IMG/VR virus record: IMGVR_UViG_3300032246_001438
Location: 14,710 to 78,709 of that record
From: a virus
Direction: 5' to 3' (one strand)
DNA length: 64,000 nt
The first letter of the stretch is position 1, and every line of letters starts with the position of its first letter. The position numbers were made by a program, and so were the translations under genes. This document shows positions 4,550 to 50,979 of the stretch, piece by piece. The notes under the pieces are model-generated. The model was not told where the DNA came from. It saw only the letters and a list, made by a program, of their open reading frames with translations, and did no database searches.

Positions 4550-4744
4550 ATGAATAAAGAACAACTTATATCAGCTCTTGGTACTTATTTACGTGCCTCA
4601 GCTGCGTCAGTCGCTGCTCTGTACATGAGCGGGATTTCAGACCCAAAGACCCTGCTAAATGCTTTCATTGCTGGTCTAGTCGGTCCACTTGCTAAGGCGT
4701 TAAATCCTAAGGATAAGGCGTACGGAATCGGCTCTACTAAGTAG
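4550..4744 (+). CDS. Holin-like small membrane protein
   Basis: Two hydrophobic helices, ALNPKDKAYG end motif, AAGGAG RBS. Confidence 0.55.
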   Translation: MNKEQLISALGTYLRASAASVAALYMSGISDPKTLLNAFIAGLVGPLAKALNPKDKAYGIGSTK

Positions 4745-4791
4745 AATAAGGGGAGGCGGGTAACTCCGCCTCCCACTATTAGGAGGATATT

Positions 4792-5025
4792 ATGGCAAAC
4801 GTAAAATGCGACAACTGTGAAACTAATGCAGACTATACCTGCGCTGACCCTGGCGTAAACCCAGTTAACTACTGCTCTACTTGTTTGCCAGCATGGCTAC
4901 GTGACCGCGCTAACTTGGGTCACTTCCCATTAGTAGAAGCTATTGATGAAAAGCCTGCTGATAAATCTGCAAAGAAAAAAGCAGAACCAAAAGCGGACGA
5001 AGTAGCCGCGGATGAAAGTAACTAG
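4792..5025 (+). CDS. Hypothetical protein with two CxxC motifs
   Basis: CDNC...CSTC; AGGAGG RBS. Confidence 0.65.
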   Translation: MANVKCDNCETNADYTCADPGVNPVNYCSTCLPAWLRDRANLGHFPLVEAIDEKPADKSAKKKAEPKADEVAADESN

Positions 5026-5275: not shown

Positions 5276-5733
5276 TGGCTACAAAAAAACAAAAAGAAAC
5301 GATGTCGGCTCGTTTTAAAGAAGTTAGCGACGAATTACAAAGAAAAAACGATTTTGACTCTCGAGTTCCAAAAGATGTTACTGAAGCGGGTACTAAACTA
5401 GAGACAGCACCTACCAGTAATCCGCCAAGGCCACGAGCAAAAAGTATTGGGTACAACGCTACTTCTAGAACTCTTTATGTTGTATTTAGAGACAACACTT
5501 GGTGGGAATACAGAAACGTGCCTACACAAATATGGGTAGGACTTCAAAATTCTTCATCTACTGGAAAATACTTAAAATCATCTGGTTTAGATACTTGGTC
5601 TGATATGGGACCAGCAAACTTAGACACAATGTCTACAGAAGCTAAAACACGAATGAGTGATAACGCATCTAAAGCTGATAAAATTCAAGGACTGCCCACT
5701 TTAGACAACTATCTGTTTGGACCCAGAAACTAA
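5275..5733 (+). CDS. KTSC domain protein
   Basis: SIGYNATSRTLYVVFRDNTWWEYRNVPTQIWVGLQNSSSTGKYL matches the KTSC pattern. Confidence 0.8.
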   Translation: MATKKQKETMSARFKEVSDELQRKNDFDSRVPKDVTEAGTKLETAPTSNPPRPRAKSIGYNATSRTLYVVFRDNTWWEYRNVPTQIWVGLQNSSSTGKYLKSSGLDTWSDMGPANLDTMSTEAKTRMSDNASKADKIQGLPTLDNYLFGPRN

Positions 5734-5734
5734 G

Positions 5735-6025
5735 ATGAAATCATACGGACCACTATACGGAGGAACTTTAAGGTACTGGCACAAGAAAGCTTTACCTGTA
5801 CTTGAGGTGGGAACCACACAAGAAATTGAACACCCATACCGTTTAGGCAAATGCCTAGTTTTTAGAGTACCATTTACAAACCCTGGTTTCTATTTTGGGG
5901 TTTGGATTAATAACCCAAACGTTAACCCTGATGATGACGCAAGGGTAGATGAGATATTAAAAGGAGCTATGAGAGGGCGAACTGCCTGGAAACCAGAGGA
6001 CGGGGCATATGATGAGTTTTTTTAA
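5735..6025 (+). CDS. Hypothetical protein
   Basis: ORF in a tightly packed operon. Confidence 0.6.
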   Translation: MKSYGPLYGGTLRYWHKKALPVLEVGTTQEIEHPYRLGKCLVFRVPFTNPGFYFGVWINNPNVNPDDDARVDEILKGAMRGRTAWKPEDGAYDEFF

Positions 6026-6379: not shown

Positions 6380-7972
6380 ATGGACAACAATATTGTTTTA
6401 GAAGAAGATGACGAAGAGTTTTTCCCTGAGGATGAACTCGAAGACGATGACGCCCTTCCCGAAGAAGAGGAAGAAGAACTTGATGAGTTATCTAAAGAGT
6501 TTGTTAAAAAACTAGTTGACCGTTGCATTCAATTTATGGATGCTCTTGTAGGTCACACCCTTCACCCCTATCAAATGCCGCTTGCTCGCCGCATTATTGA
6601 ATCTGTACTTATTAATGATGGTGAAGAAATAACCGCACTTGCTGCACGTCAGTCAGGTAAATCAGAAACTATTGCTAACACTGTAGCTACACTTATGGTA
6701 CTTCTTCCAAGACTTGCAAAAATGTACCCAGACCTACTTGGTAAGTTTGAAAATGGTATTTGGATTGGTATGTTTGCTCCTGTTGAAGGTCAGGTAGAAA
6801 CCCTTTTTGGTCGTACTGTTAATCGTCTTACATCAGAGCGAGCGCTTGAGATTCTTGGTGACCCAGAGATTGATGACTCGTTAGGTAAAGTTCCTGGTGT
6901 TACACGACAGATTAAATTAAAGAACTCTGGTTCATCTTTAATGATGATGACAGCTAACCCTAGAGCTAAAATTGAATCTAAGTCTTTCCATCTTATTGTT
7001 ATTGATGAGTGCCAAGAAGCAGACGACTTTGTGGTATCTAAGTCTATTTCACCTATGTTGGCGTATTACTCAGGAACAATGGTGAAGACTGGCACTCCTA
7101 CTACTCATAAGAATAACTTCTATCGTTCGATACAATTAAATAAACGTCGTCAAACAGGTACACGAGCACGGCAGAACCACTTTGAGTGGGATTACCGAGA
7201 CGTATCTAAGTGCAACGCTAATTACGCAAAGTTTATTAAAAAAGAGATGCTTCGTATTGGAGAGGACTCAGATGAATTCCAAATGTCCTACTGTTGTAAA
7301 TGGTTGCTGGAGAGAGGGATGTTCGTCACATCCACAATCATGGACGAACTTGGAGACACCTCACAAGAGTTGGTTAAAGCTTGGCATCGTTCTCCAGTTG
7401 TGGTCGGCATCGACCCCGCTCGCAAATTGGACTCGACGGTCGTCACGGTGGTCTGGGTAGACTGGGATAGGCCAGATGAGTTTGGATACTACGACCATAG
7501 AGTTTTAAATTGGTTAGAGATTCAAGGCGATGACTGGGAAGACCAGTATTTTCAAATAGTTAACTTTCTTGGAAGTTACGATGTACTTAGTGTAGGTGTT
7601 GACGCTAACGGTGTGGGTGACGCAGTTGCTCAAAGATTACGGTTGTTACTTCCTAGAGCCGAAGTGCATTCAATTGGCAGTAGCCAACCAGAACAATCAA
7701 AACGTTGGAAACACCTTAAAGCGTTAATTGACCGACGTATGGTTGGTTGGCCTGCTCACGCAAAAACACGACGGTTACGTACTTGGAAGCGGTTTTACCA
7801 ACAAATGACAGATTTAGAAACCAAGTTTACTGGTCCTAACTTTCTTGCCCATGCCCCAGATGAAGCCCATGCCCACGATGACTATGCCGATAGCCTAGCT
7901 ATTGCTTGTGCACTAACCCTAGATTTAACCATGCCTATGGTTGAGGTCTCTAGCTCTCCATTCTTTAAATAG
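6380..7972 (+). CDS. terL: Terminase large subunit
   Basis: ARQSGKSE Walker A, LIVIDECQ Walker B, TGTP coupling motif, VGIDPA and HDDYADS nuclease motifs. Confidence 0.95.
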   Translation: MDNNIVLEEDDEEFFPEDELEDDDALPEEEEEELDELSKEFVKKLVDRCIQFMDALVGHTLHPYQMPLARRIIESVLINDGEEITALAARQSGKSETIANTVATLMVLLPRLAKMYPDLLGKFENGIWIGMFAPVEGQVETLFGRTVNRLTSERALEILGDPEIDDSLGKVPGVTRQIKLKNSGSSLMMMTANPRAKIESKSFHLIVIDECQEADDFVVSKSISPMLAYYSGTMVKTGTPTTHKNNFYRSIQLNKRRQTGTRARQNHFEWDYRDVSKCNANYAKFIKKEMLRIGEDSDEFQMSYCCKWLLERGMFVTSTIMDELGDTSQELVKAWHRSPVVVGIDPARKLDSTVVTVVWVDWDRPDEFGYYDHRVLNWLEIQGDDWEDQYFQIVNFLGSYDVLSVGVDANGVGDAVAQRLRLLLPRAEVHSIGSSQPEQSKRWKHLKALIDRRMVGWPAHAKTRRLRTWKRFYQQMTDLETKFTGPNFLAHAPDEAHAHDDYADSLAIACALTLDLTMPMVEVSSSPFFK

Positions 7973-7979
7973 TCGTTAC

Positions 7980-8014
7980 TTTAGCCTGACTTTAGATTCA
8001 AATCGCAGGATACT
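7980..8014 (+). promoter_or_regulatory. Phage promoter motif copy 2 (TTTAGCCTGAC-N18-GATACT)
   Basis: Conserved motif and spacing. Confidence 0.6.
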
Positions 8015-8053
8015 TTTCTACGAGGTCCTCAACCCTTATAAGGAGTAATAAAA

Positions 8054-8452
8054 ATGGCAATTGCCCCAACACCAAAGTTTCCTGAACGTCCAGGCAACAC
8101 TTACGACCGTAAGATGTCCCCTGCAACTCCAGGACAACGCGGCCCTCTTCGCTTTGAAGAAGGTCTTGCAACAGACACCGACATTCCACAGGAATTTACT
8201 AACGGTGCAATGCAGGGATACGAACCTGCAGCAGGTCGTCCTAACCGTAACAAGCCAGTCCACACAAAGACAGCTGAAGAAACAATGCGCGAGCGTGCTC
8301 ACGTAGGTTCAGCAGCTTGGGTAGAAGCACCAGCAAACTTGTCAGAATTTTCTGCTGGCGCATTTGCTGACCATGGCGATAACCGCTTTGAGGAAGTTTT
8401 CCGCAGCGGCGCTAATCAAAAAGCATCTAACCCTTCAGTCGTAAACGATTAA
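8054..8452 (+). CDS. Hypothetical head-module protein
   Basis: Strong RBS, biased codons, lies between terL and portal. Confidence 0.7.
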   Translation: MAIAPTPKFPERPGNTYDRKMSPATPGQRGPLRFEEGLATDTDIPQEFTNGAMQGYEPAAGRPNRNKPVHTKTAEETMRERAHVGSAAWVEAPANLSEFSAGAFADHGDNRFEEVFRSGANQKASNPSVVND

Positions 8453-8460
8453 TTAGGTTT

Positions 8461-8519
8461 CCTACCCCCGTTTTTCTACAGGCGTTTAACATACCTGGCG
8501 GGGGTAGGTTCCTTATTTA
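8461..8519 (+). terminator. Long GC-rich stem-loop or terminator
   Basis: CCTACCCCCG...CGGGGGTAGG enclosing an inner CAGG/CCTG hairpin. Confidence 0.55.
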
Positions 8520-8533
8520 TAAAAGGATTTGAT

Positions 8534-8839
8534 ATGGCATTAATTAGAGGTAAAGAAGTAAAAGAAACGGAAAAACGGGAAGCCGCTAATCCTAAACTTT
8601 GGAACATGATTACTGCTCAAGCAGGGACAAAATTTTCTAAAAACTCTCCCGCCCGAGGTCACTGGATTCATGCCAGATACAACCAAATGGGCGGTCAATA
8701 CGTTAAATCTAAAAAAGAGGTGGACCCCCGTTTTAGAGATTACACACACGAAGCATTAGAGAAAAAAGAAGAGTCAGAAAAAAAGAAGGTCACTAAGCCA
8801 GTTGCTAAAAAAGTTTTAAGCAAAAAGCGCTTTAGCTAA
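8534..8839 (+). CDS. Basic hypothetical protein
   Basis: Lys-rich ORF with RBS. Confidence 0.65.
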   Translation: MALIRGKEVKETEKREAANPKLWNMITAQAGTKFSKNSPARGHWIHARYNQMGGQYVKSKKEVDPRFRDYTHEALEKKEESEKKKVTKPVAKKVLSKKRFS

Positions 8840-8891
8840 ATTTACTATTCGTGGTATTCTTAGCGCCTCTTAAGTTAGAAACAGGTGAGTT

Positions 8892-10598
8892 TTGAGCGGT
8901 ATTGATTTTTCGCCTCCCTCATACAGGGCTGCATCTAGCGACCTTACAATATCTATCTCTCCCCTTGGATTGGTGGAACTAGCAGATGAAGAGTTCGAAG
9001 TTCACGGCCCTCGTCTTAATCGCTATTCTCTTAACTGGGCCATGTATCTTGGTCATCACTATTCTTACCGCCGTCAAGTAGGCGAATCACAATTAGTTCT
9101 TAACTATTTCCGCGCTTTTTCAGATTTTATTATTAACTTTACTTTTGGTAAAGGTGTTAACTTCCGCTCACCAAAAGAAACAGAAGCTATTGTTCCCGAC
9201 CTTCTTGAAAGAGTATGGGAAGTAGATAACAATAAAGCTACAGTATTGTGGGAAATGGGTCAGCAAGGCGCTGTATCTGGAGACTGTTTTGTTAAGGTTG
9301 CCTACGAAGAGCCTTGGACAGACCCTTCAGGAATGCAACATCCAGGTCGCGTACGCATCCTTCCACTTAACGCGTCTTTTTGTTTTCCAGAGTTTCACCC
9401 GCATGACCGCGAACGTTTAATACGTTTTAAATTAAAGTACCGTTTCTGGGGCACATCTCTTGAAGGTACACGTCAGGTATTTACTTACACTGAAATCCTT
9501 ACAGAAGATGTGATTGAGGAATACATCAACGATGAACTTATTGATTCTCGCCCTAACCCGCTTGGCACTATTCCCATTATTCATATCCCTAATATTCGTA
9601 TTAGTGGTTCTCCTTGGGGTCTCTCTGATTGTCACGACGTTATTAATATCAATCGTACTTATAATGAAACTGCTACTGATATCGCTGACATCGTTAACTA
9701 CCATGCTGCGCCCGTCACGGTCATCATCGGTGCTAAGGCTTCTCAGCTTGAAAAGGGCGCTAACAAAGTCTGGGGTGGTCTACCAAAAGACGCAAGAGTA
9801 GAGAACCTAGAAGGTGGAGCACAGGGTCTTAAAGGCGCTATGGAGTTCTTAGCTATGCTCAAGAAGTCCATGCATGAAATGATTGGTATTCCTGAGACCG
9901 CTCTTGGTCAAGCACAGCCTATCTCTAACACATCAGGCGTTGCGCTATCTATCCAGTTCCAGCCTTTGATGAACCGCTACCACCAAAAGATTATTCAATA
10001 TGCACGTGGCCTAGAACGAGTTAACGAGTTAATTTTACGTAGCCTTGCAGTTAAAGAACCAGAAACCTTTACCTGGAACCCAGAATCAGATGTTAAGTTG
10101 AAAAAGGGACAAGTTGCTCAACTAGACCCTAATGACCCCATCACATACCTTTCATATGTACATTTCCCACAGCCTCTGCCATTAGATAAGTTAATTGCTC
10201 TTAATGAGGTTCAATCTATGCTTTCTCTTGGTCTTGAGTCTAAAGAAGGCGCACTTAGAACTCTTGGAGAAGAGTTCCCTGCTGCAAAACTTAATGAGAT
10301 TCGTCAAGAACTTCTTGATGACGCTACCGCTGACGGAGCGCTTAAGTTGCTACAAACTCAAATTGAACAAGAAATTGCAGAATTAACAGGAACTATGCCA
10401 AATCCAGAAACTGGTGGTGCCCCAGGCGCTCCAAGCGCAACTGGTAAACCAGGCGCTCCTGCTGTATTACCACCAACAATAGATGGCGCACTAGCAGCCG
10501 CGGACATGGGTGAAGCCGACCTCCGCAACAAGCTAGTAACAGAAGCTTATGGAACAGTCCTCCCTCAGAGGCGCGTTCCAGAAGAGTACGAAAAATAG
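8892..10598 (+). CDS. Portal protein (SPP1-like family)
   Basis: Size and position; NPLGTIPIIHIPN...PWGLSD, SNTSGVALSIQFQPL motifs. Confidence 0.9.
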   Translation: MSGIDFSPPSYRAASSDLTISISPLGLVELADEEFEVHGPRLNRYSLNWAMYLGHHYSYRRQVGESQLVLNYFRAFSDFIINFTFGKGVNFRSPKETEAIVPDLLERVWEVDNNKATVLWEMGQQGAVSGDCFVKVAYEEPWTDPSGMQHPGRVRILPLNASFCFPEFHPHDRERLIRFKLKYRFWGTSLEGTRQVFTYTEILTEDVIEEYINDELIDSRPNPLGTIPIIHIPNIRISGSPWGLSDCHDVININRTYNETATDIADIVNYHAAPVTVIIGAKASQLEKGANKVWGGLPKDARVENLEGGAQGLKGAMEFLAMLKKSMHEMIGIPETALGQAQPISNTSGVALSIQFQPLMNRYHQKIIQYARGLERVNELILRSLAVKEPETFTWNPESDVKLKKGQVAQLDPNDPITYLSYVHFPQPLPLDKLIALNEVQSMLSLGLESKEGALRTLGEEFPAAKLNEIRQELLDDATADGALKLLQTQIEQEIAELTGTMPNPETGGAPGAPSATGKPGAPAVLPPTIDGALAAADMGEADLRNKLVTEAYGTVLPQRRVPEEYEK

Positions 10599-29251: not shown

Positions 29252-30757
29252 ATGGCAGGATTTAATCGCCCAGGGGTGTACGTTCAAGAGACGTTAAACC
29301 CTGTTCAACCAGTAGCAACTGCTACCTCCGACTCATATGCAACCTTTGCTGGTGCAAATGACCGCGGACCAGTAAGCACTCCTACTCTAGTAACTTCTTG
29401 GAGCCAATATGTTAAAGCATTTGGTTCTTGGAACACAACAGCAGCAAATGATTTGCCTATTGCTGTTTACATGTTTTTTAGTAATGGTGGAAGCGCTTGC
29501 TACGTTGTTCGCGTTGCAGCTTCTTCAACCTCAGCCGCTCGTTCATTAAATGACCGCGCTGGAAGTCCGTCAGCAACACTTGCAATTTCTGCTAATACAC
29601 CAGGTACTTGGGGTAACAACCTTAACATTTCTATTTCAAACTCTAACACCACTGGTTACTTTGACTTGACAGTCTATGCAGGTGGAGTTACTGATTCAAA
29701 TATTGTTGAGCGATTTACTGACCTAAACATGACAACTACTGATACACGCTATGCGGTAACTACCGTTAACTCATCATCTGTTTACATTGGTTTAGTAGAT
29801 TTGAACTCAGGTAATACAGGCGCTACTCGTAACCCAGCGGTTGTAACTAACCAAACTTTAAGCGGAGGAACTGGTGGAAACGCATTAGTAGCTTCAGATT
29901 ACTCAACAGCACTTGCTTCTCTAGACACAGTAAGAAACTCTTTGGTTCTTAATGTTGCTGGTATTACAACAACTGCTGTAGTAAACGCTGCAATTGCTTA
30001 CGCTGCCTCTCGTGAAGACGTGTTTGTAGTTGTAGACAGCCTAGCGCTTACCGCAACTGCCGCTCTTTCTTTAGCTGCAACATACACACCAAGTTCTTTA
30101 GCAGCTGTGTACCACCCAGCTTTGGTCATCTCTGACCCAACTACTGCTCTCGGAGCATCCTCAACTCTTACTAAGACTATTGGTGCTGCTTCTTCTGTTG
30201 CTGGAATTATGATGGCAACAGATGCTTCTCGCGGAGTATTTAAAGCACCAGCTGGTCTTCAGTCACGTGTTGCTGGCGCAGTATCTGTTACTTCATTAAC
30301 AAATGCGGAACTAGATGCTTTGAATACAGCAGCAGCACCAATTAACGCTATTAAATATGTTCCTGGTTCAGGAATCTGCGTTATGGGTTCACGTACTCTA
30401 AAGACAGGTTATGTAGATAAGTACATTCCAGTTCGTCGTACCTTAATCTACTTACGTAAATCTCTTACTTCACTTACAGAGTTTGCAATCTTTGAGCCAA
30501 ACGATGAGCAGCTATGGCGTCGTCTTGAAGCAACTGTTAACTCATTCTTAACAACTTTCTGGTCACAGGGCGGTCTCCGTGGAGCAGAGCCTAAAGAAGC
30601 ATTCTTCGTTAAGGTAGATAAAGAGAACAATCCTCAGTATCTTATTGATAACGGAGAAGTACACATTGAAGTTGGCGTTTCTCTACAGCGTCCAGCTGAA
30701 TTCGTTGTAATCAAAATTGGTCAGTTTGACGGTGGAACCACCGTTACTGTGGCGTAA
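29252..30757 (+). CDS. Tail sheath protein
   Basis: RPGVYVQE, FFSNGGSACYVVRV, RGVFKAPAG, YIPVRR, FEPNDEQLW, PAEFVVIKI motifs. Confidence 0.95.
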   Translation: MAGFNRPGVYVQETLNPVQPVATATSDSYATFAGANDRGPVSTPTLVTSWSQYVKAFGSWNTTAANDLPIAVYMFFSNGGSACYVVRVAASSTSAARSLNDRAGSPSATLAISANTPGTWGNNLNISISNSNTTGYFDLTVYAGGVTDSNIVERFTDLNMTTTDTRYAVTTVNSSSVYIGLVDLNSGNTGATRNPAVVTNQTLSGGTGGNALVASDYSTALASLDTVRNSLVLNVAGITTTAVVNAAIAYAASREDVFVVVDSLALTATAALSLAATYTPSSLAAVYHPALVISDPTTALGASSTLTKTIGAASSVAGIMMATDASRGVFKAPAGLQSRVAGAVSVTSLTNAELDALNTAAAPINAIKYVPGSGICVMGSRTLKTGYVDKYIPVRRTLIYLRKSLTSLTEFAIFEPNDEQLWRRLEATVNSFLTTFWSQGGLRGAEPKEAFFVKVDKENNPQYLIDNGEVHIEVGVSLQRPAEFVVIKIGQFDGGTTVTVA

Positions 30758-30771
30758 AGGAGAGCCAATAA

Positions 30772-31407
30772 ATGACAGATAGCATAATCAATCGCTTCTC
30801 AACGCTAGCGACAGACCCACTACGTTCGTTTAAATTCGTTGCAGAGTTTTCACAAGCGGGTACTGAACCAGTATTTGACAAGCGCATCTTGACATCGTCA
30901 AGCACAGCACCAGCAACCTCTGGAGTTTCTGCAGGTTGGATTGGTGGTTTTAGTAACATCAGCGGGTTGAGTGTTAACACTCAGTCAATTCAGTACCGTG
31001 AAGGTGGCTACAACACCACTGTACACCAGGTACCTGGTATGACTACATTTACCCCAATTACTATGCAGCGTGGTGTTCTTTATGGAAACGACCAAGCAAT
31101 TACATGGATGCGTGGCCTATTTGGCGCTTCATCTGGTGAAGGTTTGGCAACTGGTGGCACTGGAAGTGCCGCAAAAAGCTTCCGCGTTAACATTAACGTT
31201 TACGTTATGAGTCATCCAGATGCTAATTCAGACACCCCAGTAATGGGTTTCAAGATTCACAATGCTTGGATTAGTACGCTAAACTACACAGACTTAAACG
31301 CTGCAGATGGAGCAATTTTATTTGAGTCTATGTCTCTTGTTCACGAAGGCTTGTCAGTCTTCTTTACAGGCTCAGACTACTCTCGTAAAGATGGTCTACC
31401 AAAGTAA
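30772..31407 (+). CDS. Tail tube protein (T4 gp19-like)
   Basis: DPLRSFKF, GFSNISGL, YREGG...PG...FTPITMQRG, ESMSLVHEG. Confidence 0.92.
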   Translation: MTDSIINRFSTLATDPLRSFKFVAEFSQAGTEPVFDKRILTSSSTAPATSGVSAGWIGGFSNISGLSVNTQSIQYREGGYNTTVHQVPGMTTFTPITMQRGVLYGNDQAITWMRGLFGASSGEGLATGGTGSAAKSFRVNINVYVMSHPDANSDTPVMGFKIHNAWISTLNYTDLNAADGAILFESMSLVHEGLSVFFTGSDYSRKDGLPK

Positions 31408-31437: not shown

Positions 31438-32238
31438 GTGTCCGACCCACAAATCATTACTGATTCGCAACTACTCGAGCAATTTGTTGAAAAGGCCCAG
31501 AAGGAGCCCGCACCAGTCATTAAGACGCGGGCCCCTTCAGAGTCTGAAGTACAACTTCCAGGTGGGCATCTTGACAAAGATGGCGAGTTGCACACCACAG
31601 CAGAGGTAAGGGAACTTACTGGAGCTGATGAAGAAGCAGTATCAAAAGCTGGTTCTTCTGGAAAAGCATTAAATGTATTGCTTCAAAGAGGCCTTACTAA
31701 AATTGGCGGCAACGCGGTATCCCAATCCGACCTTGACACTCTTTTAGCTGGTGACAGAGACGCAATATTGCTGGGTATTCGTAGAGTAACTTTTGGACCA
31801 ACCGCTACATTAGCGGTTCGTTGTCTAGAGTGTATGAGCGAAGGCGCAGAAGAGATTGACCTAACTAAAGATGTTCCTATCAAAAAGTTAGACAATCCAA
31901 TTGAAGACAGAGCTTGGACTATGGAGACTAAAAAGGGAACCGTAGAAGTTCGACTTCCAAATGGATTAACACAAAAGAAGTTGATGGAAAACTATGAAAA
32001 AACATCAGCTGAGATTAATACGCTACTACTATCTGGATGTATTGTTTCAATAGATGGAGTTCAATCAGTAGGTGCAGGAACTGCTTTATCACTTGGTATG
32101 GCTGACCGCACAAAAATTGTTGAAGAGATTATCAACCGTAACCCAGGCCCACGCCTTGGGGAGGTGAAGAAGCCCTGCAAGGCATGTGGTGAGTCTATGG
32201 ATTTACCTCTGAGCTTGCTAGATTTGTTTCGTATATAG
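31438..32238 (+). CDS. Tail/baseplate-hub assembly chaperone
   Basis: VRELTGADEE, LLAGDRDAILLGIRRVTFG, two CxxC motifs; lies between tube and tape measure. Confidence 0.75.
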   Translation: MSDPQIITDSQLLEQFVEKAQKEPAPVIKTRAPSESEVQLPGGHLDKDGELHTTAEVRELTGADEEAVSKAGSSGKALNVLLQRGLTKIGGNAVSQSDLDTLLAGDRDAILLGIRRVTFGPTATLAVRCLECMSEGAEEIDLTKDVPIKKLDNPIEDRAWTMETKKGTVEVRLPNGLTQKKLMENYEKTSAEINTLLLSGCIVSIDGVQSVGAGTALSLGMADRTKIVEEIINRNPGPRLGEVKKPCKACGESMDLPLSLLDLFRI

Positions 32239-32383
32239 CGAAAAAGATTACGAATCTCTTCTTGATGAATACGAAGTTCTAACAAGAACTTTTACTGGAT
32301 GGACGCTTTCAGACATAAGAGGCCTTTCTGTTAGAGAAAGGCAAAATTGGCTGGAACGCTCTACGAGACTTAAAGGACGGTAA
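32228..32383 (+). CDS. Start-less +1-frame extension of the tail chaperone (predicted programmed frameshift product)
   Basis: FVYSEKDYESLLDEYEVLTRTFTGWTLSDIRGLSVRERQNWLERSTRLKGR; no ATG/GTG/TTG in frame; fills the gap up to the tape measure gene. Confidence 0.7.
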   Translation, partial: FVYSEKDYESLLDEYEVLTRTFTGWTLSDIRGLSVRERQNWLERSTRLKGR

Positions 32384-32388
32384 TGTAA

Positions 32389-34575
32389 GTGGCAGACTCA
32401 AAAGCTTCGTTTAACGTAAGCTCTTCTAAGTCTGGGTCTATTATCTCCGACCTTAGAACAGGTATCTCTACTCTTCGCCAAGAAGTTAACCTTTTAAAAC
32501 AAGATACTGGCGGGTGGGTTAATACCCTATCTGGTGGGGTTAATAAACTACGTGGCGGTGGAGCGGGTGTTGGTTCTAATCAAGTAGCCCCTGAACCACG
32601 CTTTGCTGGCGGAGGAGCCTTAGCTGCTCACGATTTTAATCCGCAAGTTTATACAGGCGGTCCAACTGGAAACCAGGTATTTTCTAACGCTAATAGCGGT
32701 GGAGGCGGCGGCGGGGGTCGCGGTTCTTTTGGTGAATGGTTAAGCGCTAACCGAGGTCCTATATCAACAGCTCTATTTACTGGAAGCATCTCAGCTCTTC
32801 CTAAAACATCAGAAGCAGTAGACATGAACTTGGCAACAAGTCGTGCTGTCTTCTACCAGCAGCAGTCATCTGGTTACGGCTCAACAGGCTCTGTAAAGGG
32901 CGACTACGGCAACGTAACAAGAATGATGAAAGAAGCTCAGCGTGCTGGAACAATTACTAATAAATTTGACGCCGCTAATGCTTTAGCTACAGCAAGCTCT
33001 TACGGTATCTCTGGTCCAAACTTTAATGATGTCTTTATGGGCAGTGCCCAGATGTCAAACCTTACCCCAGGTATGGGTCTTGAACAATCAATGAAAGCAT
33101 ATGGCGCTGTTCAACAGGGTCGAAATGTAAACATGCTTCGCGCTGTTGGCATTCGAATTCGTGGTGAAGACGGTTCTATGAAACCTATGCCACAAATTAT
33201 TGATGAAATTTGGTCAAAACTTAACCGTGAAAAAATTGGTGGAGAACCCCTAACTGTTGAAGATATCAAAATATCTTTGCAGCCTGGTAACGCTTTAGAT
33301 ATGATGATTACTAATCTGTTTGGAACAGACTCCCTAGTACGCCGTCAGGTATCAGACGGTCTTATTCAAAAAGCGCGTACTGGCGGAAAACGTTTAGCTG
33401 GAGCTGACTTAAAAGAGCAGGCACGAGAAACAGGAGCTAGCACTAACGCAGTTCAGTCTTTAAGCAAAAGAGTGTCAACTGCCTCTGATACATTGATGCA
33501 ATTAGCTCCTACAATGAGTAACGTCTTTGAATTTGGAAATAAAATTGTAAGCAGTATTACAAGTACTTTAAACTTTATTGATAGATTTCTCCCTATTTTA
33601 AAAATGCTTGGTGGCATTAAGGCTTTTGGTGAAACAGTATTTGGCGGAGGCGGCCTTTCAATGCTCAACCCCCTTAACTGGATTAAAGGGAAAGAAGCTG
33701 GCGGACCTGTTGCTAAAGATAATCCAACTCCTTACATTGTTGGTGAAAAAGGCCCAGAACTCTTTATGCCTAAGGTTGATGGAACAATTATTCCTAACCA
33801 CGAATTAAAAGCTAAGAACTACCCTTTCCGCCATGAGGGTGGAGAAGTTCACAATAAGACTCACAACGCTCCAGACACTCGTCCTGCAGGAAAAGGAAAG
33901 ATTGTTCTTGGAGATAAAGAGTTAGAAGACATCTTAAAGCAAGCTGGATTTAAAGACCAAGGTCTTGAGAACGCTAAGAAGATTGCACAGGCTGAGTCTG
34001 GGAAACGTCCTTGGGCATTTAACCCTCACGACAAAGACTTATCTTATGGCTTGTTCCAAATCAATATGCTTGGTGGTCTTGCAAAAGAACGCCTAGCTAA
34101 AGAATGGAAAGATGCTAACGGCGGCACTTTTAAACTTAATTCTAATGAAGACTTATATGATGCGCTGACTAATGCAAAAGTAGCTAGACACATGTCTGCT
34201 GGTGGAAAGAACTGGAGTCAGTGGTCAACTAAAGGCGTGCTTAGCGGTGGTAGCGCAGGTTCTTCTGGCTCTGGTGCTTTAGAGTCTGGCGATGGGGGTT
34301 CATCTTCTTCCTCCTCTTCTTCTAAAGACGATTCAAAACCAACAACTCTTAGAGGAATCCTTGATGGTTTCAATAAAGATAATAAGAGCGTTTTGGGAGA
34401 CTTTATTAAAGGAGCTTGGGAAAACATTAAAGGCGGAGGACAGGCTCAACACACCTATAACTACGGTGGAGTAACTATTGCTGTTAATGGTTCAAGTAAT
34501 CCAAGTGATACCGTGGCAGCTCTTAAGTCAGCTTTAAGTAGCCAAACAATGATGAATCAGGCAGCACAATCATAA
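32389..34575 (+). CDS. Tape measure protein with C-terminal lytic transglycosylase domain
   Basis: Position; EAGGPV...PYIVGEKGPELFMP...GTIIPN motif; IAQAESG...SYGLFQINM...NWSQWST lysozyme-like domain. Confidence 0.85.
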   Translation: MADSKASFNVSSSKSGSIISDLRTGISTLRQEVNLLKQDTGGWVNTLSGGVNKLRGGGAGVGSNQVAPEPRFAGGGALAAHDFNPQVYTGGPTGNQVFSNANSGGGGGGGRGSFGEWLSANRGPISTALFTGSISALPKTSEAVDMNLATSRAVFYQQQSSGYGSTGSVKGDYGNVTRMMKEAQRAGTITNKFDAANALATASSYGISGPNFNDVFMGSAQMSNLTPGMGLEQSMKAYGAVQQGRNVNMLRAVGIRIRGEDGSMKPMPQIIDEIWSKLNREKIGGEPLTVEDIKISLQPGNALDMMITNLFGTDSLVRRQVSDGLIQKARTGGKRLAGADLKEQARETGASTNAVQSLSKRVSTASDTLMQLAPTMSNVFEFGNKIVSSITSTLNFIDRFLPILKMLGGIKAFGETVFGGGGLSMLNPLNWIKGKEAGGPVAKDNPTPYIVGEKGPELFMPKVDGTIIPNHELKAKNYPFRHEGGEVHNKTHNAPDTRPAGKGKIVLGDKELEDILKQAGFKDQGLENAKKIAQAESGKRPWAFNPHDKDLSYGLFQINMLGGLAKERLAKEWKDANGGTFKLNSNEDLYDALTNAKVARHMSAGGKNWSQWSTKGVLSGGSAGSSGSGALESGDGGSSSSSSSSKDDSKPTTLRGILDGFNKDNKSVLGDFIKGAWENIKGGGQAQHTYNYGGVTIAVNGSSNPSDTVAALKSALSSQTMMNQAAQS

Positions 34576-50746: not shown

Positions 50747-50819
50747 TGCCCTATAGCTCAGCTGGCAGAGCGAGCGACTGTTAATCGCTAGGTCCCTGGT
50801 TCGAGCCCAGGTGGGGCAG
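50747..50819 (+). tRNA. trnN: tRNA-Asn(GTT), no encoded CCA
   Basis: Acceptor TGCCCTA/TGGGGCA; anticodon arm AGCGA-CTGTTAA-TCGCT; T-loop GGTTCGAG. Confidence 0.93.
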
Positions 50820-50823
50820 CAAT

Positions 50824-50899
50824 GCGGTTGTAGCTCAGTTGGTAGAGCGGCACCTTGCCAAGGTGCAGGTCGCGAGTTCGAGCCTCGTCAACCGCTCCA
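50824..50899 (+). tRNA. trnG: tRNA-Gly(GCC) with CCA
   Basis: Acceptor GCGGTTG/CAACCGC; anticodon arm GCACC-TTGCCAA-GGTGC; ends TCCA. Confidence 0.95.
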
Positions 50900-50900
50900 T

Positions 50901-50972
50901 TCTCCCTTCGTCTAATTGGCAAGACTGCGGATTCTGGTTCCGCCTATCGAGGTTCGAGTCCTTGGGGGAGAG
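50901..50972 (+). tRNA. trnQ: tRNA-Gln(CTG), no encoded CCA
   Basis: Acceptor TCTCCCT/GGGGAGA; anticodon arm GCGGA-TTCTGGT-TCCGC; T arm CGAGG-TTCGAGT-CCTTG. Confidence 0.9.
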
Positions 50973-50979
50973 CTTTACA

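Follow-up and report, generated by a model that had tools for sequence, protein, structure and literature searches.

In phage lambda, a gene that sits before the tape measure gene gives two nested products, the short and abundant gpG and the rare, extended gpGT. This pair, and the conserved tail-chaperone frameshift in general, were reportedly described by Levin in 1993 and by Xu, Hendrix and Duda in 2004, 2013 and 2014. The tail assembly chaperone pair of phage P2, E and E+E′, was reportedly described by Christie and co-workers in 2002; E′ is made only by frameshifting. T4 is said in one major review to be the sole exception to the tail-chaperone frameshift of long-tailed phages. Bacteria and phages have few programmed +1 frameshifts, with poorly defined signals. 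Lambda and P2 use a −1 shift in the chaperone gene and Mu a −2 shift; a +1 frameshift was proposed for the tail chaperone pair of the Halorubrum myovirus HSTV-2 (PMC5009743). Here, a stretch of 64,000 nucleotides (nt) from the IMG/VR virus record IMGVR_UViG_3300032246_001438, referred to as the window, was analysed around its tail assembly chaperone gene. This gene probably carries a +1 frameshift at UUU_C, which would add an extension related to P2 E′. Coordinates are window positions on the + strand unless another record is named.

The locus in the window resembled lambda gpG/gpGT in its place before the tape measure gene and in the short and extended nested products predicted for it, but the direction of the predicted shift differed and there was no sequence similarity. 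The binding partners of both parts of the lambda protein have been shown, whereas those of the window system are inferred. HSTV-2, which was likened to the window by description and not by sequence, has a forward shift proposed in a contractile-tail virus, but its host is archaeal. An earlier note, made from the letters of the window, had called a +1 slip an unusual mechanism for this gene pair. The mechanism is unusual, but the proposal for HSTV-2 gives it a precedent.

Structure of the frame junction

The chaperone gene (31438–32238; PF12322, phrog_150) encoded a standard-frame product of 266 residues. Its 3′ end read GAT TTG TTT CGT ATA TAG (32221–32238), in which the TAG stop (32236–32238) was located two codons past TTT. 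In the +1 frame, a TAG stop (32219–32221, within TGC TAG at 32216–32221) was followed by an open stretch from 32222 to the TAA at 32381–32383. This stretch contained 53 sense codons, 51 of them from the TTC at 32228, and ATG, GTG and TTG were all absent from it (32222–32383). The GTG start of the tape measure gene (32389) lay 5 nt past the TAA. These features had all been read by the earlier note and were reproduced.

The two TAG codons limited any change of frame to an overlap of 17 nt, which recurred in many relatives, and TTT_C was the sole codon in the overlap that permitted re-pairing one base forward. The proposed shift site, TTG_TTT_C (32224–32230), was placed by conservation and codon choice, with UUU at 32227–32229 and the overlapping UUC at 32228–32230. 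The +1-frame extension (32228–32383) consisted of Phe and 50 new residues followed by TAA. A shift at this site would join residues 1–264 of the chaperone to these 50 residues in a predicted product of 314 residues (31438–32383, translated with TTTC as one step) with the junction ...LLDLF|VYSEK...; the junction peptide expected of the +1 product is of the type ACGESMDLPLSLLDLFVYSEK.

When the 64 open reading frames (ORFs) of at least 100 residues in the window were compared, the run at 32222–32383 was the only start-less alternative-frame run across a stop. The other long runs of this kind all held canonical starts, because each of them is the next gene. As the sole start-less run among the 64 ORFs, the open +1 frame therefore exceeds chance. 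Two other ways of changing frame were rejected. The −1 frame was closed at the junction, being open solely at 32193–32282, which excluded a −1 shift. Transcriptional slippage was discarded because three consecutive T are too few for it and the C that comes next is conserved.

Conservation of the shift site among homologous junctions

A megablast search of the region against 50,697 phage records gave zero matches, and chaperone matches at 33–38% identity were found in six Streptomyces phage records. The near set contained 62 distinct junctions in 103 loci, 100 of them from the aquatic clade of IMG/VR (chaperone identity 59–100%) and three from Streptomyces phages (33–38%). The sequence YTG TTT C was invariant in 62 of the 62 distinct junctions, and all 103 loci had a conserved +1-frame ORF of about 50–80 codons that reached the tape measure gene. 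Phages LuckySocke, GiJojo and BRock had the same gene order, with a chaperone gene that ended in CTG TTT C(AG/GC) GAA CTC and a stop. The distance from TTT to the stop was two codons in the aquatic clade, three in the Streptomyces clade, and five to six in the Bacillus and giant-phage relatives. The conserved slippery site was thus of the +1 type and not the usual −1 heptamer.

In the near families TTT was followed by CGT, CGC, CGA, CAA or CAG, and in the distant lineages by CAC, CTA or TTT. Every near junction had Arg or Gln after Phe, from a codon that begins with C; AGA and AGG were never used, and AGA accounts for 23% of the Arg codons yet never followed the Phe of the site.

Distant PF12322 genes (26–29% identity or less) likewise lay between the tube and tape measure genes. 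In four of four such lineages the gene stopped a few codons past an in-frame TTT_Y, with a related +1-frame ORF behind it. The sites were TTT TTT CAC in Bacillus phage SP-15, TTC TTT CGT in Bacillus phage HSE3, AAC TTT CTA in an uncultured 484-kb phage and TTT TTT AGT in Listeria phage LIS04 (OQ999172). An in-frame UUU followed by a pyrimidine was therefore present at the point where the frames join in all 62 near junctions and all four distant lineages.

The earlier note had proposed a +1 slip on TTT two codons before the stop and an alignment of homologous chaperone–tape measure junctions as a check. That alignment gave TTT_C, the +1 relation and no conserved start in 62 of 62 junctions, and the conservation of site and frame, which extends to the four distant lineages, supports the slip. 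Its motif, UUU_CGN, held in part: UUU_C was conserved, with UUU_Y in the distant relatives, but CGN was not. The actinobacterial host that it had assumed is only a guess, resting on the Streptomyces phages at 33–38% identity.

Selection on the shift site and on the +1 frame

Relative synonymous entropy was scored in 128 conserved codon columns of 71 chaperone genes. The mean was 0.70 and the value was near zero in just eight columns, two of which were the TTG and TTT of the shift site. TTG is a minor codon in this phage (11% of Leu codons). The Streptomyces relatives favoured TTC (58–67 against 8–23 TTT) yet retained TTT at the site. The TTT_C of the site was the sole in-frame TTT_C of the chaperone gene.

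Of the 422 in-frame TTT codons in the + strand ORFs of the window, only 39 preceded a C, whereas 197 preceded G, 144 A and 42 T. The window genes may generally avoid TTT_Y, as expected of a shift-prone sequence.

The entropy of the +1 ORF at codon positions 1, 2 and 3 of its own frame was 0.75, 0.41 and 1.29 in the 62 junctions; as judged from these alignments, the ORF evolves as coding sequence and is under strong purifying selection. A canonical start was missing up to codon +8 in 32 of the 62 junctions and missing altogether in 15. The protein conservation of the extension reached upstream of the starts given in GenBank, back to TG TTT C.

In-frame fusions of chaperone and extension were absent among the best 120 of 970 chaperone homologues, all of which had 246–276 residues, and a search with the extension found no longer proteins that held it. 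When the extension profile was compared with 1.84 billion representative proteins, 120 clusters were matched, 117 of them with 31–84 residues. The three long proteins matched over 5–11 scattered short stretches and were taken as spurious uninspected; no in-frame fusion to the chaperone was present among the 120 clusters. The domain is widespread and never joined in frame to the body, as a required frameshift predicts.

Relationship of the extension to P2 E′

The Pfam family PF06528 (Phage_P2_GpE) was identified as the −1-frame E′ extension of P2 (E 2.7e-22), and the E body as PF10109. PF06528 matched the window extension with 13.7 bits (E 0.045) and the extensions of two relatives with 14.9 and 14.3 bits (E 0.019 and 0.029), all below the gathering cut-off of 23 bits. 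When 32 extensions were aligned with nine P2-like E′ sequences by hhalign, the probability was 91% (E 9e-7, 36 columns), and a wider extension profile gave 85%. A Pfam search of ten distant small-protein matches gave one weak PF06528 match. The motif W-x2-S-[DE]-[IL]-x2-[LM]-S-x2-E-x3-W was common to the extension and P2 E′. By profile comparison the extension is a remote homologue of P2 E′, though it is no member of PF06528 by Pfam's rule. The likeness to the C-terminal extensions of tail chaperones that the earlier note had seen in the +1 product was thus borne out.

When the locus was compared with P2 E/E+E′ (NC_001895), both belonged to contractile tails with the order sheath, tube, chaperone and tape measure. 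E′ overlaps gene T in P2, and the tape measure ATG abuts or overlaps the extension stop in the relatives of the window. However, P2 shifts −1 on a T-rich heptamer, whereas the window would shift +1 on UUU_C. The bodies also differed: that of P2 is the 91-residue E (PF10109), whereas that of the window is a 264-residue PF12322 protein with two chaperone-like modules and four conserved Cys residues.

In many relatives the tape measure ATG lay within a few bases of the extension stop or overlapped it as TAATG; the GTG of the window was 5 nt on. This suggests that the tape measure gene is translated both by coupling to +1-frame ribosomes and from a binding site of its own.

Family and fold of the chaperone body

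The 266-residue protein matched PF12322 with 32.2 bits (E 1.1e-7), above the gathering cut-off of 24.5, and was a member of this family, as were all of the best 120 of 970 homologues. The AlphaFold model of the chaperone had a predicted local distance difference test score (pLDDT) of 87 and a predicted template modelling score (pTM) of 0.80. It was composed of two similar modules, each with a β-hairpin and helices followed by a CxxC knuckle. The best match in the PDB was the HK97 tail assembly chaperone (2ob9), with a middling Z score of 6.4 over 96 of 104 residues and a root-mean-square deviation of 4.0, followed by YqbN (3klu, Z 6.1) and 3fgx (Z 6.0), also middling; these were the top three of 48,161 chains. 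Foldseek gave a probability of 0.90 at E 0.39, and predicted viral structures named 'Baseplate hub assembly protein, T4-like' matched the model at E 1e-20. The upstream gene is a member of the T4 gp26/gp51 family, and the model and these modest scores suggest a fold like that of tail chaperones.

The model had the appearance of an internal duplication, with invariant Cys pairs at Cys129/Cys132 and Cys247/Cys250. In the model, the four Cys residues probably form one zinc site that joins both halves.

The chaperone gene was part of a contractile-tail module on the + strand, in the order sheath, tube, chaperone and tape measure, and lay directly between the tube and tape measure genes; the order was identical in all relatives opened. 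The tail sheath gene (29252–30757) matched phrog_23 (E 5.8e-47) and PF17482. The tail tube protein gene (30772–31407), of the T4 gp19 family, matched PF06841 (E 4.7e-24) and phrog_4542. The tape measure protein gene (32389–34575; phrog_5062) encoded 728 residues from its GTG start, with a lysozyme-like SLT_3 domain.

Proposed mechanism of the shift

In the proposed mechanism, most ribosomes would stop at the TAG at 32236 and give the 266-residue protein. A fraction would slip one base forward with tRNA-Phe on UUU (32227–32229) in the P site. The anticodon GAA would re-pair to the overlapping UUC (32228–32230), a better match than UUU, and reading in the +1 frame would continue for 50 codons to the TAA at 32381 to give the 314-residue protein. 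By analogy with lambda gpG/gpGT and P2 E/E+E′, the tape measure protein would be coated by the common body, and assembly of the tail tube would be started by a second contact that only the rare long form provides. The efficiency of the shift is probably a few percent, as no strong stimulator was found; a low efficiency like that of lambda gpGT would be the natural expectation by analogy.

In bacteria, UUU_Ynn has been documented as prone to +1 shifts (Atkins et al. 2016, PMC5009743). At such sites, as in Yersinia YopN-TyeA, tRNA-Phe re-pairs one base forward to UUC or UUU, as proposed for the window. The site in the window is literally the UUU_CGU of influenza A PA-X and the amalgaviruses (UCC_UUU_CGU), and the re-pairing step would be the same. 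However, the rare CGU causes a pause in PA-X and the E-site codon is UCC, whereas in the window family CGN was not conserved, CGT was common and the preceding codon was UUG or CUG. The bacterial UUU_Ynn rule fits all lineages and does so better than the PA-X analogy.

A perfect extended Shine-Dalgarno-like sequence, GGAGGTGA, was located at 32160–32167, 59 nt before TTT, with no start codon at a usable distance. It lay in a stretch of the chaperone gene where the synonymous-entropy scan found suppressed change (32151–32185; CGC..GGG GAG GTG..AAG GCA), with near-zero synonymous variation at CGC, GGG, GAG, GTG, AAG and GCA in the 71 homologues. Purine-rich motifs were present at −31 to −82 nt from the site in distant relatives, and because of this varying distance no role as a shift stimulator is claimed for GGAGGTGA.

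A cluster of three tRNA genes was present at 50747–50973 (Asn-GTT, Gly-GCC and Gln-CTG). None of them was for Phe or Arg, and from this cluster the phage thus supplies no tRNA that bears on the shift site.

Weighing of the alternative explanations

Several points weigh against a frameshift at UUU_C. The case is wholly comparative, and the roles proposed for body and extension come by analogy. Stimulators of known kinds were missing: a pause at a rare next codon, as in PA-X, was unsupported, since CGT is the commonest Arg codon of the phage (41%), and RNAalifold gave no conserved RNA structure past the site in 40 diverse sequences. The helices that it predicted were located only upstream of the site, on invariant bases, and three pairs had a compensatory change. 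The sole Shine-Dalgarno-like element, at 59 nt upstream, lies well beyond the 3-nt spacing that is effective in prfB. Residue Phe264 was invariant in the chaperone alignment, so that the conservation of Leu-Phe is partly a constraint on the protein; what carries the case is therefore not the residue but the choice of codon and the base that comes next. A TTG or GTG was also present in the +1 frame 3–4 codons upstream of the site in about half of the junctions. This last point would serve the rival reading in which the 51-codon ORF gives a free E′-like peptide, from a non-canonical start such as the ATT at 32222 or by restart after 32236–32238, and no fusion is made. GenBank has separate small genes in LuckySocke, GiJojo, BRock, SP-15 and HSE3, gene callers give proteins of 31–84 residues in 117 of the 120 clusters, and the annotation of T4 gene 26 includes a second, internal start (26′), all of which fit a free peptide. 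However, there was no conserved start: the window ORF lacks ATG, GTG and TTG, and the ATT at 32222 was rejected as its own start because the synonymous change GAT to GAC turns it into ACT in several lineages. The annotated starts lie within the conserved domain and vary between close relatives: LuckySocke has an ATG, and GiJojo a TTG located 22 codons earlier. Inspection by eye showed no purine-rich ribosome binding site ahead of the ORF; no scan for one was made. A free peptide would also leave the invariant TTT_Y and the suppressed synonymous change unexplained across lineages down to 26% identity, and this reading is considered improbable.

A −2 shift would reach the same frame as a +1 shift, and so would an incoming tRNA that binds out of frame, without +1 re-pairing. 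Phage Mu uses −2 in its chaperone pair (Xu et al. 2004, as cited in PMC5009743), and LIS04 and SP-15 hold runs of six T where a −2 shift is possible, as shown on U6A (PMC3458567). However, the window and 62 of 62 near junctions all read G TTT C at the site. A move back by two bases would place tRNA-Phe on TGT and tRNA-Leu on an unrelated triplet with no re-pairing, whereas the forward move gives a perfect UUC match and is the only one to explain the invariant C after TTT. Either route is considered very unlikely. Still less credible is an artefact or decay, with one longer gene split by an assembly indel or a +1 ORF left over without function. The one point in its favour is how often metagenome assemblies contain indels in general. 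The same frame relation was found in 103 loci, from dozens of independent metagenomes and from isolates sequenced by different groups. Two contigs from different metagenomes with 100% identical chaperones had exactly the same junction and +1 ORF, which excludes an assembly indel. Decay is contradicted by the strong purifying selection in the +1 frame, and no in-frame version was present among the listed protein-search results. The forward slip at UUU_C is therefore preferred, as a comparative prediction, to each of these alternatives.

Comparison with T4 gp26 and gp51

The baseplate hub assembly proteins gp26 (208 residues) and gp51 (249 residues) of T4 are full-length PF12322 proteins like that of the window. 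The end of gp26 (...EFFELL) aligned with ...DLFRI of the window, where the shift site is located. In gp51, PF12322 covered residues 1–201 and was followed by 48 further residues, an in-frame tail that begins at the aligned shift position; the window extension has 50 residues. Unlike in the window, T4 has two separate genes, neither of which adjoins the tube gene. No E′-like frameshift ORF was found after T4 gene 26, where the sequence is TTT_G and gene 25 is directly next. The tail of gp51 had no significant similarity to the extension family (hhalign probability 0.1–0.7%), a result that does not support homology between them.

A frameshifted PF12322 gene might tentatively be regarded as the ancestral state of the T4 pair, in which gp26 fixed the short form and gp51 the long form. 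The architecture supports this reading, with PF12322 in both proteins and the tail at the aligned site, but sequence homology of the tails does not. If it were true, T4 would make its chaperone pair from a duplicated gene, and gp26 and gp51, its hub 'catalysts', would act as chaperones of the tape measure protein. With the gp26/gp51 family in the position of the chaperone, ahead of the tape measure gene, the missing G/GT frameshift of T4 becomes a directly testable question. In the T4 locus record, gene 51 is at 8480–9229 and gene 26 at 7803–8429.

Annotation in deposited genomes

Tail-chaperone frameshifting is classical. In the literature searched, no paper was found on a +1 shift at UUU_C in chaperones of the PF12322 type, and the BRock genome paper left the shift unmentioned. 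The +1 UUU_C version in this type of chaperone has strong comparative support and a predicted product. UUG_UUU_C, minimal and deeply conserved with no recognisable stimulator, would be a natural test case of whether such a site suffices for low-level +1 shifting. It was kept across hosts and base compositions, from phages of freshwater metagenomes to Streptomyces, Bacillus and Listeria phages and a 484-kb phage.

The ORF was present in at least eight deposited phage genomes (LuckySocke, Alone3, GiJojo, pSt2308, BRock, SP-15, HSE3 and LIS04). The upstream gene was labelled 'baseplate hub' or 'hypothetical' in deposited genomes, and the joined frameshift product was annotated in none of the records examined. 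In five of the six genomes opened, the extension was annotated as a truncated, separate 'hypothetical protein'; in LIS04 it was unannotated.

The small genes were located at 4785–5024 in LuckySocke, 4710–4949 in GiJojo and 4791–5015 in BRock (locus-record positions). Their annotated starts, ATG or TTG, cut into the conserved domain, and a joined frameshift feature is probably needed in these records. In LIS04, a stretch of 230 nt between the 'baseplate hub' and tape measure genes held the conserved +1 ORF (OQ999172, locus-record positions 5584–5889). This ORF could be reached at GAG TTT TTT AGT, and the same ORF is the truncated hypothetical protein of SP-15 and HSE3.

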